From a virus: a stretch of DNA of 64,000 nt. Below, piece by piece: positions 6,164-53,993 of this stretch. The stretch spans positions 32,001 through 96,000 of the IMG/VR virus record IMGVR_UViG_3300045049_000286; one strand, written 5' to 3'. The notes below the pieces were generated by a model, which did no database searches, was not told the origin of the DNA, and saw only the letters and a program-made list of their open reading frames with translations. The position numbers and the translations under genes were made by a program. Each line of letters opens with the position of its first letter. Position 1 is the first letter of the stretch.

Positions 6164-6264
6164 AACAAGCTCCCCAGCTTCGTGGACTGATTCAGCCGTG
6201 ATCGTAGTGGGGAAAATGCGGCACCCACCACACGATCGGCCGGACCCGCGAATATTGTGATGGC

Positions 6265-6801
6265 ATGCGAGACGAGAATGCGCTGCGCGCGCTGTGGGAC
6301 GCCCTGCCCGCCATCCAGTGCAAGGGCCTGTGTGATGACTCGTGCACCGCGATCGACATGAGCCCGCTGGAGCACGATCTGGTGCGCGAGGCCGGCGTCG
6401 ACATCCCCAAGCATGCGGTAACGAAGGACCAGCGATGCGTGGCGCTGGGGACGTTCAACCGGTGCCGCGTCTACGAGAGCCGGCCGACTGTGTGCCGGGT
6501 TTTCGGGCTGACCCGGTCCCTGTACTGCGGGCATGGCTGCGTGCCGGAGGGCGGCTTTTTGGAGGAGTACGACGCGATCCTGCGTCTGCAGCTCTCGATG
6601 CTCTACGGCGGGGCTTTCCCGGACGACCTCACCGAGGAGCGGTTGAGGGAAGTGGCTGCGCGGCCGGAGGTCCGTGCGAAGGTGCTGGCCGCTTCTCTGA
6701 GCATCGGATGGCCCCGGTTACCGCGCGCGTTGTGGAGTGAGAATGCGAGAGGCCCACCCCCGGCTCGGGTGGGCCTCTTCGTCATGCTGCCACGGCGCTG
6801 A
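6265..6801 (+). CDS. YkgJ-like Cys-cluster (Zn/Fe-S) protein; 3' end uncertain
   Basis: CKGLCDDSC...CVAL...RCRVYESRPTVCRVF motif. Confidence 0.75.
   Translation: MRDENALRALWDALPAIQCKGLCDDSCTAIDMSPLEHDLVREAGVDIPKHAVTKDQRCVALGTFNRCRVYESRPTVCRVFGLTRSLYCGHGCVPEGGFLEEYDAILRLQLSMLYGGAFPDDLTEERLREVAARPEVRAKVLAASLSIGWPRLPRALWSENARGPPPARVGLFVMLPRR
6748..6778. terminator. hairpin between convergent genes
   Basis: AGAGGCCCACCC/GGGTGGGCCTCT 12-bp stem. Confidence 0.6.
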
Positions 6802-46051: not shown

Positions 46052-47134
46052 TCAGGGGGCCTGGGTGCGCCAGTCGGGTCCGAAGATGTTGGGGTGGACG
46101 CCGGTGGTGAGCAGGTTGGCGGTGTTGTAGTACTTCATGGTCATGCGTGGGTCTTCGTGGCCGACGTAGCGGGAGAGGCGGTGGATGGTCAGGACGTCTC
46201 CGGGCTGGGTCAGGCCCAGGGTGATGAAGGTGTCGCGGGCCATGTAAGGGTTGACGAGTTCGCCGGCGGCGGGCTGGATGCCGGCGGCTTCGCCGAGGCG
46301 GTAGAAGAGCCGGCGGATGCCGGAGGTGTCGAGGGCGTTCTGTTCGAGTTCCCCGGTGTCCTTGTTACGGATCTTGCGGCCGAGGAGGAACGGCCCGCTC
46401 GTGCGGCCGGCGAGGCAGCGGTCCAGGATCGGGTAGAGCTTGTAGCCGAGGTCGATGGTCTGCCAGTAGCCGCCGCCTTTCTTGACGCGCATGAGCTTGA
46501 GGGTGCGAATCTTCCCGCCGGCGCGGGTGCCGAGGTTCTCCACGCGGGCGAGGTGCATTTCCTCGGGGCGCATTCCAGTTCCGAGGAGCATGGCGACGCA
46601 CAGTTCGCTGCGCGGGTGGTCGTCGCGGGCGGCCTCGTACAGGCTCCAGTACTCGTGGGGCTGGAAGATGTCCTTCGCGCCGATCTCGGCCGCGCTGCCG
46701 CGTGGCTTACGTCCGCGCTGCTTGGGGACGGGGTTGAACTGGACGAACTCGCGGTGGCGTTCGGTGAGGTAGTCGTAGAACTGGGAGATCGCGGTGCGGG
46801 CGTGGTCCTTGTTCTCCTTGCCGTACGGGAGGCGTTCGCATTCCTCGACACAGGGTCCGGGGTGGTGGGTCCAGTGGTTGGAGGAGAGGTACTCCAGGTG
46901 CTGGTCGATGTCGTCCGGGCTGGCGTCGTAGGGGTGGAGCATGGGCCAGCGGTCGAGCCAGGCGACGTAGATTCGCAGGTGGCGGCGGTACACGCGGGCG
47001 GTCTCGGGGCTGTAGTCCTTGGTGAAGGCCGCGATCAGCTCGTGGGCTTCGGTGCGCTGGCCGGGAATGCGGATGCGTCGGGTGGCCCACGTCGGCCTGT
47101 ACTCAGGACTCTGAGTGGTCGTCATGTGCTCCAT
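46052..47134 (-). CDS. tyrosine recombinase (XerC/D-like)
   Basis: YSPETARVY SAM-like N-domain, TGMRPEE, KGG, PYMARDTF, VGH.....T.KY. Confidence 0.9.
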   Translation of the reverse strand: MEHMTTTQSPEYRPTWATRRIRIPGQRTEAHELIAAFTKDYSPETARVYRRHLRIYVAWLDRWPMLHPYDASPDDIDQHLEYLSSNHWTHHPGPCVEECERLPYGKENKDHARTAISQFYDYLTERHREFVQFNPVPKQRGRKPRGSAAEIGAKDIFQPHEYWSLYEAARDDHPRSELCVAMLLGTGMRPEEMHLARVENLGTRAGGKIRTLKLMRVKKGGGYWQTIDLGYKLYPILDRCLAGRTSGPFLLGRKIRNKDTGELEQNALDTSGIRRLFYRLGEAAGIQPAAGELVNPYMARDTFITLGLTQPGDVLTIHRLSRYVGHEDPRMTMKYYNTANLLTTGVHPNIFGPDWRTQAP

Positions 47135-47221: not shown

Positions 47222-48709
47222 ATGGGGAGCACCGAACAGGCCGAGCGCAAGGCCCTCATCACCGACATCGTCGAGAAGGTCCTCATGGTGGTCGACGAGC
47301 TGTCAGGTCACCCATTGCGCCCGTATCAGAGGCCGTTCGCCGCACGGGTGATCGAGTCGCTGATCGTCGAGGACAGCGCCAAGATCACCGCCCTGTGGAG
47401 CCGGCAGTCCGGCAAGTCGGAGACAGTGGCCAACACCATCGCCGGATGCATGATCATGCTGCCCCGCCTCGCGAAGCTCTTCCCCGACATGCTGGACAAG
47501 TTCCGCGAGGGCCTGTGGGTGGGCGTCTTCGCCCCCACCGACGAGATGAGCGAGACCCTCTTCTCCCGCGTCGCCTCGCGCCTCACCTCCGACCGGGCCA
47601 TGGAGATCTACGCCGACCCCGAGATCGACGAGAAGCTCGAAGGACGCGGCAAGGTCATCAAGATGAAGCGCTGCGGGTCGCTGGTGCGTAAGCAAACCGC
47701 GCACCCGAAGGCGGCCATCGAAGGCCAGACCTACCACATCGTGTTCATCGACGAGTGTCAGCAGGCGGACGAGAAAGTCGTCAACAAGTCCATCGCGCCG
47801 ATGCTCACCGCGACCGCCGGCACGATGTGCATGACCGGCACGCCGACGTATCACAAGAGCGTCTTCTACGAGCAGATCAAGCTGAACAAGCGCAAGGCCA
47901 TCAACACCCCGAACTCGGACCATTTCGAGGTCGCGTGGAAGGAAGTGGCCAAGCACTACCCGCGTTACGGCAAGTTCGTCCGCAGTGAGATGGACCGATT
48001 GGGCGAAGACAGTGACGAGTTCAAGTTGAGCTACCGCCTGGTGTGGATGCTCGACAAGGGAATGCTCGTCACCTCCGACCGGTTCGAGGCCCTCGGCGAC
48101 ACGTCCATGAAGACAGTGCCCGAGTTCCACAAGTCCCCCGTCATCGTCGGCATCGACCCCGCCCGCAAGACGGACTCCACCGTGGTCACCGTCGTGTGGG
48201 TCAACTGGGACTACGCCGACGAATTCGGCCACTTCGAGCACCGCGTCCTCAACTGGCTCGACCTCACCGGCATGCACTGGGAAGAGCAGTACTTCCGGAT
48301 CGTTGAGTTCCTCTCCCACTACAACGTCCACGCCATCGGCATCGACGCCGGCGGCCTCGGCGACGTCGTCTCCCAGCGCCTGCGCGTCCTCATGCCGTAC
48401 GCCGACATACGCGACCTCAAGTCCGATCGCGGAGCCCAGACAAAGCGTTGGGGCCACATGATGGACCTCATGTCCAAGGGTCTTCTCGTGTGGCCGGCAC
48501 ACGCCAAGACCCGGCAGACCCGCAACTGGAAGAAGTTCCGCGCGCAGATGGAGGACGCGGAACTCAACTACGTGGGCCCGCACATCATCGTCGCCGCCCC
48601 GCAGGTCGACTCCGCGCACGACGACTACGTCGACTCCCTTTCCAACGCACTGTGGCTGACGGCCGAACTGCAGATGCCGACCGCCGAGATCATCAACACT
48701 CCATGGTGA
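47222..48709 (+). CDS. terL: terminase large subunit
   Basis: PYQ, SRQSGKSE Walker A, VFIDE Walker B, TGTP, GIDPA nuclease, HDDYVDS. Confidence 0.93.
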   Translation: MGSTEQAERKALITDIVEKVLMVVDELSGHPLRPYQRPFAARVIESLIVEDSAKITALWSRQSGKSETVANTIAGCMIMLPRLAKLFPDMLDKFREGLWVGVFAPTDEMSETLFSRVASRLTSDRAMEIYADPEIDEKLEGRGKVIKMKRCGSLVRKQTAHPKAAIEGQTYHIVFIDECQQADEKVVNKSIAPMLTATAGTMCMTGTPTYHKSVFYEQIKLNKRKAINTPNSDHFEVAWKEVAKHYPRYGKFVRSEMDRLGEDSDEFKLSYRLVWMLDKGMLVTSDRFEALGDTSMKTVPEFHKSPVIVGIDPARKTDSTVVTVVWVNWDYADEFGHFEHRVLNWLDLTGMHWEEQYFRIVEFLSHYNVHAIGIDAGGLGDVVSQRLRVLMPYADIRDLKSDRGAQTKRWGHMMDLMSKGLLVWPAHAKTRQTRNWKKFRAQMEDAELNYVGPHIIVAAPQVDSAHDDYVDSLSNALWLTAELQMPTAEIINTPW

Positions 48710-49955: not shown

Positions 49956-51680
49956 ATGTCGATCGCCTTTGTCTCGCCGAGCATGAGGGCCGCCGCAAGC
50001 GACCTCACCGTCTCCGTCAGCCCCCTCGGGCTGGTGGAACTCGCAGACGAGGAGTTCGAGTTAGGTAGGTACACGGACCACGCCTGACCCGCTACGCTAA
50101 CCACTGGGCGTTCTACCTCGGCTACCACTGGGCCTACAAGCGTGAGGCCGGCGAGCCGAACATCACCGTGAACTACACCGGCGCCCTGTCCCGGTACATA
50201 ACGAACTTCACCTTCGGACGCGGCGTCAACTTCATGTCCGACAAGAAGTTCGAGCACATCATCCCTGCCCTCCTCGACCGCGCCTGGACCGTCGACAACG
50301 ACAAGAAGTCCACGCTGTGGCAGATGGGCGAGAACGGCTCCGTCGCGGGCGACTGCTTCGTCAAGATTGCCTACGAAGCCCCCTGGCAAGACCCGGCAGG
50401 AGGTGATCACCCCGGACGAGTGAGGATTCTGCCGCTGAACGCGGCGCAGTGCTTCCCTGAGTACCACCCCCACGACCGGGACCGATTACCGCCTCCTCCG
50501 GTTCAAGCTCAAGTACAAGTTCTGGGGGACGAGCCTCGAAGGCACCCGCCAGGTGTACACCTACACCGAGATCATCACCGACGAGTACATCGAGGAGTAC
50601 GTCAACGACGAACTGCTCGACGCCCGTGACAACCCCCTCGGCGCCATCCCGATCGTACACATCCGCAACATCTCCATCTCCGGCTCGCCGTGGGGACTCG
50701 CGGACATCGTCGACCTCATCCCGCTGAACCGAGAGTTCAACGAAAAGGCGACCGAGATATCGGACATCGTCAACTACCATGCCGCCCCGCTGACCATCGT
50801 CACCGGCGCCAAAGTTTCACAGCTTGAGCGCGGCGCCAAGAAGGTCATCGGGGGCCTCCCGAAAGACGCCAACGTCTTCAACCTGGAGAACGGCGTCGAC
50901 CTCAACGGGCCTCTCGCCTACCTCGACCTCATCAAGAGGGCGATGCACGAGCTGACCGGCGTCCCCGAGACCGCACTCGGCATGGCACAGCCGATCTCCA
51001 ACACCTCCGGGGTGGCTCTCCAAATCCAGTTCCTGCCGCTCATGAACCGGTACGAACTCAAGAAGGTCAACTACACCCTCGGCCTCAAGCGCATCAACGA
51101 ACTGATCCTGCGCACGCTCTTCCTCTACGAGCCGAACACCCTGCGCTACGACCCCGACTCCCAGGGCATGAAGACGCAGGACGACCAGCCCGACGTCCTC
51201 GACCCAGCCGACCCGGCCGTCTACAACGTCGACATCGACTGGCCGCCACCGCTGCCCATCGACCAGCTCGTCAAGCTCAACGAGATCCAGGCCAAGCTCG
51301 CCCTCGGCCTGGAATCCAAGCGCGGCGCGCTCCGCGAACTCGGCGTCGAGTTCGTCGACGAGAAGATGTCCGAGATCTTCGACGAGCAACTGCGCGAGGC
51401 GAAGGAGGAAGGCGCGCTCGAACTTATTCGGGCGGAAATAACCTCTGCCATCCTCCAGGCCACCGGGGTTACTCCTGACGGAGAAACTCCGACACCTGCT
51501 GCGAGCGCCACCGGCGCCTCTTCTGGAGGCAGTGCCGGCACGGAAGGCGCAGGACCCCTTCCCGGTCTCCCCGGAGTCGGGGGGACAACGGACACACAGT
51601 CGATGCTGAACGAACTCACGACCCTGTCCAAGGGCACCAAACTCGCCCAGTACAGGAATCCGGACAAAAACTCGGACTGA
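49956..51680 (+). CDS. portal protein encoded in three frames (49956-50060, 50069-50485, 50493-51680; about 569 aa if joined)
   Basis: GGGAGG RBS; portal motifs (G.V.GDCFV, NPLG.IPIVH..N, WG.ADI, NTSGVAL); two coding gaps each starting at an in-frame TTA. Confidence 0.85.
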
Positions 51681-51702: not shown

Positions 51703-52533
51703 GTGGAACCCCAGAGCACTGAGACCCAGCCGCCGGCCACGTTCACCGCGACCAGCATCCCCACCACCGCATGGAACGGCGGACCGACCCTCGGCACCGC
51801 CACCAGCACCGCACCCCAGACCTTCACGGCACAGGACATGGAACGGGCCCGCCAGGAGGAGAAGGAGAAGCTCTACGGCCGCCTCACCAAGGCCGAAGAG
51901 CGCGCCGCAGCGGTGGAGCAGGAGATGGCCCGCTGGAAGGCCGAGGCCGACCAGCGCGAAGCCGAGCGACAGGCCAAGCTCAACGAGAAGGCCCAGCGCA
52001 AGCAGGCCAAGCTCGCCGAGAAGGCCGAGCGCGACCGCGCCGCCGCCGAGGCCGACATGAGCGCCCGCCAGCTCCTCGCGGAGCGAACCCGGGAGTTCGA
52101 GGAGCGCTTCCAGTCCATGGAGGCGCGCCAGGCCGCCGAGAAGGCCGCGCTGGCGAAGGAGGCCGAGTTCAACCGACTCAGCGCCTACATCCAGCAGCGG
52201 ATCAACCAGGAGGCGGGCAGCATCGCCCCCCAGCTCATCGACCTGATCTCCGGCGACACGCAGGAGGAAGTCGACCGCTCCATCGAGCTGATGAAGGCCA
52301 AGACCGCCGAGATCGTGCAGTCCGTCGCCAACGGACAGGCGCAGAACCGCGCACAGCTTCGGGGAACCGCGCCCACGGGCTTCACCGCGAACGGGCCAGT
52401 GGACTCCGAGAACAACTCCCAGCAGCTCACCGCCGAGCAGATCGCAGCGATGCCCATGCGGGAATTCGCTCGATACCGGGGTCAGCTCCTGGGGGCTGCG
52501 TCGAGGTCCGGCAATCGCGGGCTCTTCGACTAA
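51703..52533 (+). CDS. capsid scaffolding protein
   Basis: Charged coiled coil between portal and capsid genes; AAGGA RBS. Confidence 0.8.
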   Translation: MEPQSTETQPPATFTATSIPTTAWNGGPTLGTATSTAPQTFTAQDMERARQEEKEKLYGRLTKAEERAAAVEQEMARWKAEADQREAERQAKLNEKAQRKQAKLAEKAERDRAAAEADMSARQLLAERTREFEERFQSMEARQAAEKAALAKEAEFNRLSAYIQQRINQEAGSIAPQLIDLISGDTQEEVDRSIELMKAKTAEIVQSVANGQAQNRAQLRGTAPTGFTANGPVDSENNSQQLTAEQIAAMPMREFARYRGQLLGAASRSGNRGLFD

Positions 52534-52563: not shown

Positions 52564-53993
52564 ATGGCATCCGGAATCACGGGGACTCCGCTTCTGTCCC
52601 CGACCCCGACGGCGTACACCGCGTCGTCCTCGTCGATGCTCACGCCGGCGATCCAGACCATCTGGTCCAAGGAGATCCTCAAGGGTTAAGGGGACCTCGT
52701 GCGGTGACGTACGAGTAAACACCACGCTGTATCGGTGAACCCCTCCAAGAGCACGTCAGGGGAATACCGAGGGAACCCTCACCGGGGACTCCGTAGAGAC
52801 TACACGCGAGGCATCTCCAACGAGGCCGGCCGAACGGTGACGTAGGTCGGGGACTCACACGGACTGGGAGATGAAGATATAGTCCGGTCTGCACTCGATG
52901 GCAAAGGTGCAGAGCCAGGCAGAAATGACCTGGCCCCAACTGATCGGCTTGGGTAACAAACCGCTTCCAGGCAATGCCGATCCTGCGGTTCGAGCAGTTC
53001 ATGGTCAAGAAGACCGAACTCGGAACCGCGCCCGGCCTGTCCGTGAACTTCATGAGGTATCGGGCGCTCGATGGGGCTCAGCAGCTCGTCGAGGGCGTCC
53101 GCATGGAGACCCACGCGCTGACGGCCGAGCAGATCACCATCACGGTCGCCGAGCAGGGCTTCGCGGTCGCCGTGACGGAGCTTCTCCTCAACTCCAGCTT
53201 CGACGACGTGATGGCGAGCGCAGCCCGCCTCCTGGGCCGCAACATGGCCACCTACCTCGACGGGCAGTGCCGCGACACCCTCCTGGGTGCCCCGTCGGTG
53301 CTCTACGGCTACGACAAGCTCGCGTCGTGGGCGGCCGGCGAGACCCGCACTCCTCTGTCCCCGTACGACCGTGGCATGTTCGCCGACTCCGAGGCGACCA
53401 TGACCACGAACGGCGGCTTCTACTTCACGGCGGCGCTCGTCAAGGACGCCGTAGAAACTTTGGCCACGAAGAATGTCCCGCGACTCGGCGAGACGTACGT
53501 GGCCTTCGTGCACCCACACCAGAGCCGCCGCCTTCGTGACGACCCGGAGTTCATCGAGGTCACCAAGTACGCGGCGCCCGGCAATTTCATGCTGGGTGAG
53601 ATCGGCCGGCTCAACGACGTCGTCTTCATCGAGACGACCCAGGTGTTCCAGGGCACGTTCAACCCGCCGCCGCCCACCACCCAGCTCGGCACGACCATTC
53701 CGGTCGGCAACAGCCAGGTGTGGCAGGGGCAGCCTGCGCGGACGGCTTCCGGTTCGATTCCGGCGATTCCTGCGGTGACGCAGGTTCCGTCGAACCCGAA
53801 CGCCCCGACCAACTCCATCTACCGCGCTCTCGTCATCGGCGACAACGCGGCCGGCCACGCGATTTCGCTGCCGGTGGAGCTGCGCGATGGCGGCGTGCTC
53901 GACTTCGGCCGTGAGCACGCGCTGGCGTGGTACTCGATCTGGGGCCTCGGCCTCATCACGGACTACGCCGTCGTGCAGTGCGCGACGAACTGA
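52564..53993 (+). CDS. major capsid protein (N4-gp56-like), exons 52564-52679 and 52964-53993, 381 aa spliced
   Basis: Joined frame reads ...IWSKEILFQAMPILRFEQF; later HPHQ, GEIG, DFGRE motifs. Confidence 0.88.
52680..52963 (+). ncRNA. group I intron, 284 nt, no homing endonuclease
   Basis: Exon ends in U, intron ends in G; R element GTAGAGACTA (52793), S element AAGATATAGTCC (52874); P4 TCGGT/ACCGA; IGS AAG-GGGACCTC pairs with both exons. Confidence 0.9.

Follow-up and report, generated by a model that had tools for sequence, protein, structure and literature searches.

Two short UUA-led coding gaps in a phage portal gene are candidates for programmed translational bypassing

The portal gene of a phage known from the virus record IMGVR_UViG_3300045049_000286 (IMG/VR) appears to be read through two short stretches of mRNA that the ribosome would skip. 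We analyzed a window of 64,000 nucleotides (nt), corresponding to bases 32001-96000 of the 107,980-bp record, in which the gene occupies positions 49956-51680 of the plus strand (positions here and below are those of the window). Its frame is broken twice, by 8 nt at 50061-50068 and by 7 nt at 50486-50492, and each break opens on an in-frame TTA. Judging from the sequence of the gene and its relatives, we consider it likely that both breaks are crossed by programmed short-range translational bypassing, in which two hops would yield a single portal chain of 569 amino acids (35+139+395). An earlier note on this DNA had proposed two such UUA-triggered sites. All of its coordinates held when the frames were re-read and tblastn alignments were made, including the stops met by staying in frame, and its core proposal is strongly supported by the gaps of relatives, by purifying selection and by indel-free flanks in 62 homologues.

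The two coding gaps

The features of the locus, all on the plus strand, are as follows.

49956-51680, plus strand: whole portal gene, in three segments read in frames 0, 2 and 0
49956-50060, plus strand: portal segment 1, 35 codons in frame 0, the last being the take-off codon GAG (50058-50060); 97% amino acid identity to the relative L007
50049-50054, plus strand: Shine-Dalgarno (SD)-like GAGGAG, 3 nt 5' of the take-off codon, a spacing as in prfB
50061-50068, plus strand: coding gap 1, TTAGGTAG, 8 nt; A-site UUA 50061-50063, landing triplet UAG 50066-50068, resume codon GTA at 50069
50069-50485, plus strand: portal segment 2, 139 codons in frame 2, the last being the take-off codon CGA (50483-50485); SPP1_portal positions 12-131
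50085-50087, plus strand: frame-0 stop TGA, met when the UUA of site 1 is decoded normally; product of 43 amino acids
50486-50492, plus strand: coding gap 2, TTACCGC, 7 nt; A-site UUA 50486-50488, landing triplet CGC 50490-50492, resume codon CTC at 50493
50493-51680, plus strand: portal segment 3, 395 codons in frame 0, then the stop TGA (51678-51680); SPP1_portal positions 148-415 and PHROG 64
50627-50629, plus strand: frame-2 stop, met when the UUA of site 2 is decoded normally

Frame 0 runs from the ATG at 49956 to the first TGA, frame 2 is open from 50069, directly after the TAG that closes it upstream, and frame 0 reopens at 50436. The protein is an SPP1 gp6-like portal, with segments 2 and 3 jointly spanning positions 12-415 of PF05133 (SPP1_portal) and with PHROG 64 matches. 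The unbroken portals of the Streptomyces phages LuckySocke and BRock (55-61% identity; segment 2 is 57% identical to LuckySocke residues 38-176) aligned by tblastn without a gap at either junction, reading DEEFE-(M/V)HGPRL at the first and HPHDRDR-LL(E/R)FKLKY at the second, as had been expected of the joined protein. Thus, TTAGGTAG and TTACCGC are surplus bases. At the DNA level, the position of gap 1 is ambiguous by up to 2 nt to the left (GTTAGGTA or AGTTAGGT).

According to the proposed mechanism, the ribosome at site 1 would hold peptidyl-tRNA-Glu on GAG with the rare UUA in its A site. A long pause would allow the peptidyl-tRNA to unpair, the mRNA would slide by 8 nt, re-pairing with UAG would engage two of three positions, and decoding would resume at GUA to give DEEFE-VHGPRL. 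At site 2, peptidyl-tRNA-Arg on CGA, again with UUA in the A site, would slide 7 nt to the synonymous CGC and resume at CUC, giving HPHDRDR-LLRFKLKY. Bacterial tRNA-Arg(ICG) reads both CGA and CGC. Normal decoding of either UUA would lead to termination soon after, at 50085 or 50627. In Streptomyces, the developmentally regulated bldA tRNA is the only reader of UUA, and scarcity of this Leu-tRNA(UAA) may be what triggers the hops. At site 1, GAGGAG might help, as its duplex with the anti-SD tail has an energy of -8.2 kcal/mol against a background median of -3.1.

The TTA codons themselves are exceptional. TTA makes up 0.06% of codons across this portal family, and the 108-kb genome contains 164 TTA trinucleotides on both strands together. 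Outside the portal, its sole plausible in-frame coding TTA lies at 6718, the others being intergenic or upstream of starts. The earlier note had found no further in-frame TTA in the 17-kb morphogenesis module. In 11 portal genes of the clade to which the window belongs, 15 of 16 in-frame TTA codons open a gap. Chance does not account for an in-frame TTA at both gaps. No further TTA-led gaps were found elsewhere in the genome. The TTA at 6718 is part of CGG TTA CCG CGC (6718-6729, within the plus-strand open reading frame (ORF) 6208-6801), which resembles an X-TTAC-X' design, yet no frame change follows. A terminator-like hairpin (6749-6780) follows shortly downstream, and this TTA may be an ordinary bldA-dependent codon.

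To place the gene among its relatives, 145 related loci were fetched from viral, metagenome and genome collections, and 104 distinct loci were scored for gaps. One of them, L007, has a portal with approximately 75% amino acid identity to that of the window and gaps at both of the same positions: GAA-TTACC-GAA>GTC at site 1 and CGA-TTAC-CGC>TTG at site 2 (take-off, gap and landing joined by hyphens, resume codon after >). The site 2 gap is identical in the two genes. Between them, the ratio of nonsynonymous to synonymous divergence (dN/dS) is 0.04, 0.15 and 0.21 for segments 1, 2 and 3, each in its own frame, with dS of 0.8-1.75. All three segments are therefore under purifying selection. In the 62 distinct unbroken homologues, residues 20-90 and 165-185 contain zero indels, and the residues flanking the junctions are nearly invariant.

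These data bear on whether the gene is simply dead, through decay of a defective phage or because a helper supplies the portal in trans. An essential gene with two frame breaks, in a phage known here from its sequence, invites such a reading. However, each of the three segments shows a dN/dS far under 1 against a gap-sharing relative at dS of approximately 1, and the gene has no additional stops or indels. The genome, which has terminal repeats, is complete, and gaps of this design are found again in at least 25 loci, with at least 16 changes of state on the tree. We regard a dead gene as very unlikely. A sequencing or assembly artefact is an even fainter prospect, close to negligible. The window comes from a single metagenome-derived record, but gaps occur at the same or neighboring sites in independent assemblies, in other samples and in isolate genomes, and inserts of 7-8 nt are atypical as an error type. 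Thus, the gaps shared with L007, the purifying selection and the approximately 25-28 of 104 loci with gaps at recurrent sites argue against both assembly error and a pseudogene.

Three open frames could also stand for a split gene, whose three separate polypeptides would assemble into a portal. We found no start codon at either junction. The first ATG, GTG or TTG is at 50168 in segment 2 (33 codons in) and at 50553 in segment 3 (20 codons in), both fall within conserved sequence, and conservation extends to both edges of each gap. This makes a split gene extremely improbable, and bypassing into one chain remains the preferred reading.

Gap designs across the portal family

Short gaps of 2 to 13 nt were found in the first third of the portal, recurrently at residues 30, 33, 35/36, 41, 51/52, 56, 77-79 and 175 (LuckySocke numbering). 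They were catalogued by a first pass with tblastn followed by frameshift-aware alignment, and curated by eye from the alignment output; the designs of L130, L118 (at residue 30) and L096 are doubtful. The frameshift-aware rescan revealed that L084 and several other loci carry compensating or in-frame gaps that a single tblastn hit overlooks.

The gaps follow a common rule: a take-off codon is followed by a rare, slow or stop codon in the A site, then by a short spacer and by a landing triplet directly before the resume codon. Designs from relatives, written as take-off, gap and landing, are listed here.

CTT-TTAC-CTC; GAG-TTACC-GAG; GAA-TTAT-GAA; GAA-TAAGT-GCA
TAT-T-TAC; TTT-ATAGG-TTC; CAC-TTAG-CAC; CAA-TTACG-CAG; GCT-TA-GCC
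TGG-AGACCCTA-AGG, with a 13-nt version in another contig

In 12 of 20 non-redundant designs, the landing triplet is either the take-off codon itself or a synonym of it, and most of the others match at two of three positions. The same genes give a chance expectation of 4.4% for cognate pairs and 13.8% for a two-of-three match, and the excess of cognate landing is significant at p ~5e-12, or 8e-7 if each site is granted three placements. The two sites of the window fall on either side of this division, as the earlier note had described them: CGC is synonymous with CGA, while UAG matches GAG at two of three positions. The A-site codons are either the rarest sense codons of the family (TTA, and AGA with 0.05%, ATA with 0.22% and CTA with 0.31%) or the stops TAA, TAG and TGA. 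This codon-level rule is a signature of translation and is what re-pairing of the peptidyl-tRNA predicts. Most TTA-led gaps begin with TTAC, and beyond TTA(C) no sequence is common to the gaps. An SD-like stimulator was rejected as a general rule; only residues 30 and 35/36 have a strong element of this kind.

In-frame gaps of 6-9 nt with a stop between matching codons were also observed at portal residues 51-56 in L030, L061, L070, L071, L078, L075 and L088. Examples are TGG-TAG-TGG, TTC-TAGCGG-TTC, TGG-CTATAA-AGG and TGG-ATATAA-AGG. They are easily missed, as tblastn reads through them. In three loci (L004:1131-1136, L005:2586-2591 and L010:2586-2591), a 6-nt in-frame insert with TTA, CGA TTA CGC CTG (CGA-TTA-CGC), lies within the invariant HGPRL block. 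Skipping this insert would produce the canonical protein, reading it normally would put Leu-Arg into the chain, and either product would be full length.

The design rule helps to weigh single-step frameshifting that would leave extra residues in the protein. For site 2, this would mean shifting by +1 when the hungry UUA is reached and reading UAC out of frame, with DRDR-YR-LLRF as the product; for site 1, slipping by -1 on U-AGG would produce EFE-LGR-VHGPRL. Hungry codons provoke +1 and -1 shifts according to the works cited as refs 13 and 47 of PMC10732093, and the TTAC of most TTA-led gaps places UAC in the +1 frame. However, the P-site tRNAs cannot re-pair one base away (CGA to GAU, GAG to AGU), an X XXY YYZ heptamer is absent at both sites, and the extra residues would land in the blocks that are indel-free in the 62 homologues. 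Nor does frameshifting explain the 12 of 20 cognate matches between take-off and the triplet before the resume codon, and it cannot serve gaps of +5, +8, +11 and +13 or the in-frame gaps with stops. Site 1 would in addition require decoding of UUA and then a slip onto a stop triplet. The TAG at 50066-50068 blocks an early -1 shift, and the earlier note had argued that this UAG excludes a simple -1 slip at the TTA. Frameshifting of this kind is unlikely.

The inserts might instead be removed before translation, either from the RNA (by some form of editing or micro-splicing) or from a subset of the genomes. This phage does splice RNA, as a group I intron interrupts its capsid gene. But the two sites have no Rfam match and no significant structure, and the take-off/landing and rare-codon rules are features of translation, not of splicing. 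We know of no ribozyme or editing system that excises 7-8 nt. Removal before translation is thus rated highly unlikely, and the family-wide rule continues to favor bypassing by the ribosome.

Likeness to known bypass systems

A UUA-led bypass was proposed for the terminase of phage phiHau3 by Smith et al. 2013, as that work is cited in PMC10732093. In the study of Antonov et al. 2023 (PMC10732093), gaps were present in just 3 of 100 terminase genes, the full-length product was detected in Streptomyces, and a junction peptide was identified for a UAA variant in E. coli. For phiHau3 g6/7, a stop inside the gap in the shifted frame caused no drop in full-length product. That the bldA tRNA is the UUA reader of Streptomyces is documented in PMC10732093 and PMC2000904. 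The earlier note had invoked this precedent, and it is real: we read the two phiHau3 sites directly (L150:2611-2626 and 2921-2936) as GGC-TTACTCC-GGT>AAG and TCT-TTAACGG-TCC>ACG. Take-off and landing are synonymous at both, and one begins with TTAC, the commonest form of the TTA-led portal gaps.

Like the portal gene of the window, the terminases of phiHau3 (g6/g7/g8), StrepC.1 and an S. catenulae prophage carry short frame-breaking inserts that open on an in-frame UUA and whose flanks are adjacent in uninterrupted homologues. In a further likeness, phiHau3 is a temperate Streptomyces-type phage in which a single essential packaging gene carries both sites and the old frame runs into a stop downstream. 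In contrast, its gene is a terminase rather than a portal, and its genome is 50 kb and R4-like, whereas that of the window is an unrelated 108-kb genome with terminal repeats, similar to those of BRock and LuckySocke. The gaps are 10 nt in phiHau3 and 7 nt in S. catenulae, compared with 8 and 7 nt here, and the landing triplet at site 1 of the window is imperfect. Gaps are also far more frequent in the portal family, at roughly a quarter of loci compared with 3 of 100 terminases. By its sequence, the window has the same design as the phiHau3 kind, placed in a different gene and a different lineage and with shorter gaps, and it belongs to a far larger natural series in which stops and rare codons other than UUA also serve.

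Other systems share parts of this design. In T4 gene 60, a take-off codon is left and a matching landing codon is re-paired, also in an essential phage gene and with a mobile or patchy element. However, it has a 50-nt gap, a stop after the take-off codon, a take-off stem-loop and a nascent-peptide signal, while the window has 7-8 nt and a rare sense codon in the A site. Gaps of 8 and 7 nt, a sense codon in the A site and the lack of a significant hairpin set the sites examined here apart from the gene 60 type. In E. coli, low-level hopping occurs where a codon is hungry or a stop (Weiss et al. 1987; Gallant and Lindsley; Kane et al. 1992; as represented by refs 47-52 in PMC10732093). It is short, uses matching codons and depends on a slow A site, which suits the relatives whose A-site codon is a stop, AGA, ATA or CTA. 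As cited there, such hops are rare errors in artificial or overexpression settings, whereas portal hops would be obligatory, in an essential gene and under selection. prfB (RF2) is laid out like site 1, its SD-like element being followed by 3 nt of spacer, then by the P-site codon and a slow A-site codon, but it shifts by +1 rather than +8, re-pairs on a slippery CUU-U, and differs from site 1 in that the A-site codon of the latter is a sense codon. The byps of Magnusiomyces capitatus mitochondria are likewise numerous per gene, patchy among relatives and flanked by matching codons; they are structured mitochondrial elements of 27-55 nt, compared with 2-13 nt for the portal gaps. Finally, the gp50/gp51 primase overlap of mycobacteriophage Bxb1 has a rare UUA near a frame change, for which bypass was suggested (PMC12646305). 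That case is a remark whose design is not analyzed there. In the full-text literature searched, we found no case of portal bypass, and only the terminase cases and the Bxb1 primase remark turned up.

Several points weigh against bypassing. The case for this phage comes from DNA sequence, and the phiHau3 bypass is itself called a "candidate" by its authors (PMC10732093). The landing at site 1 matches at only two of three positions, and an equivalent UAG 4 nt earlier leads into a dead frame. The SD-like element of site 2 is weak, leaving clear help of this kind confined to site 1, and the pooled enrichment across the family is also weak (p = 0.014, with non-independent sites). RNA folds of 40-70 nt at both sites are no stabler than shuffled sequences (z from -0.6 to +1.0), unlike T4 gene 60 with its stem-loop and phiHau3, for which stem-loops have been proposed. 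A 7-bp hairpin that encloses site 2 consists of conserved coding sequence containing CCGG and is not significant. Because of the imperfect landing and the earlier UAG, site 1 may be inefficient or use another path; it is the weaker design of the two.

Genomic setting, turnover and possible roles of the gaps

The source record is rated a complete phage genome with direct terminal repeats and has a G+C content of 67%. Its nearest cultured relatives are the Streptomyces phages LuckySocke, Alone3, GiJojo, pSt2308 and BRock, whose portals share 55-61% identity with that of the window. The order of terminase, portal, scaffold and capsid genes is identical to that of LuckySocke, and the genes around the portal are as follows.

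46052-47131, minus strand: tyrosine integrase, next to the terminase gene on its upstream side and in divergent orientation to it
47222-48706, plus strand: large terminase
51703-52530, after the portal: gene in scaffold position, without Pfam or PHROG match

Pfam and PHROG matches are likewise lacking for the ORFs that separate terminase and portal. With its integrase, the phage is probably temperate. No tRNA genes were found in the 108-kb genome, and hence no phage-borne tRNA-Leu(UAA), so that decoding of UUA relies on the host. Among genes covered by a tblastn search with 30 LuckySocke proteins, only the portal and the major capsid gene are broken. The latter (52564-53993) is split into exon 1 (ATG at 52564 to approximately 52680) and exon 2 (approximately 52965-53993) by approximately 284 nt that match the group I intron model RF00028 (41.6 bits, E = 2e-9, under the gathering score of 50). 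The insert has the AGAUAUAGUC core motif and no internal ORF. No Rfam family reaches its gathering score anywhere within the window.

In a tree of the C-terminal domain, the window falls within a clade of nine (Shimodaira-Hasegawa-like approximate likelihood ratio test (SH-aLRT) 96). Among its members are a chromosomal prophage of Streptomyces sp. HMX87 and a contig of a Saccharothrix sp. ST-888 assembly. Members with near-identical C-termini have differing gap sets. Over 80 scored rows, the presence or absence of gaps changed at least 16 times, at least 11 of them at residues 51/52 alone. The same gap also occurs in different backgrounds: L006 and L084 share GAG-TTACC-GAG, and L084 shares CAC-TTAG-CAC with the distant L127. 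Identical gaps across backgrounds, together with differing sets in near-identical genes, thus point to gaps that are gained, lost or exchanged quickly. The HMX87 locus (L084) lies on a 7.6-Mb contig of an isolate genome (NZ_JBKKQY010000001.1), presumably as an integrated prophage, and its portal has gaps at 2557-2564 (GAG-TTACC-GAG) and 2634-2640 (CAC-TTAG-CAC).

No homing-endonuclease gene was found beside the portal in the clade of the window. The same two ORFs as in the window precede the portal in clade members with different gap sets and in the gap-free L009. Selfish elements do occur in head genes of the family, namely the capsid intron of this phage and a portal intein in the distant relatives L126 (2029-3000), L127 and L128. 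In these three, an in-frame insertion of approximately 300 codons at residue ~199 starts with Cys, ends in TGN followed by C and contains no stops, which is the hallmark of an intein.

As to purpose, the gaps could lower portal output and would possibly couple it inversely to the supply of bldA tRNA. As regulatory roles, the earlier note suggested inverse bldA sensing, a steep AND-gate linked to the developmental stage of the host, or a limit on copy number; these are conjectures, of which the bldA-sensing AND-gate is plausible. The portal is needed at 12 copies per head. The integrase fits a link to lysis and lysogeny, as in the idea put forward for phiHau3. The A-site codon of relatives can be TAA, TAG, TGA, AGA, ATA or CTA, so that slow decoding of any kind seems sufficient, rather than bldA specifically. 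This weakens bldA sensing as an explanation for the whole family, whose design seems to work without a need for bldA. Simple attenuation of the portal, and a selfish or near-neutral origin, stand equally beside bldA gating.

A broader reading can be offered tentatively, as a possibility we think doubtful. The short gaps would form a class of genetic element that turns over fast, and actinobacterial ribosomes would hop efficiently at any slow A-site codon (UUA, AGA, AUA, CUA or stop), given a cognate landing 2-13 nt ahead; in this phage, the two gaps would act as a two-step gate that ties head assembly inversely to bldA tRNA. If this were true, the portal family would be a natural rulebook of bypassing with at least 25 designs. 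The HMX87 prophage, which resides in a cultured Streptomyces isolate, may allow the bldA-sensing idea to be tested directly.

Translational bypassing is among the rarest departures from standard decoding. The published cases are T4 gene 60 with its related genes, the byps of yeast mitochondria and the candidate in three Streptomyces phage terminases. The portal would add a second essential gene and an unrelated phage lineage to the UUA-led kind. Its relatives supply what the terminase case lacks, many independent designs, which point to a slow A site, a cognate landing and a spacer of 2-13 nt with no strong hairpin needed. Since gene callers split such genes, essential phage genes of this type would be mis-annotated as broken.

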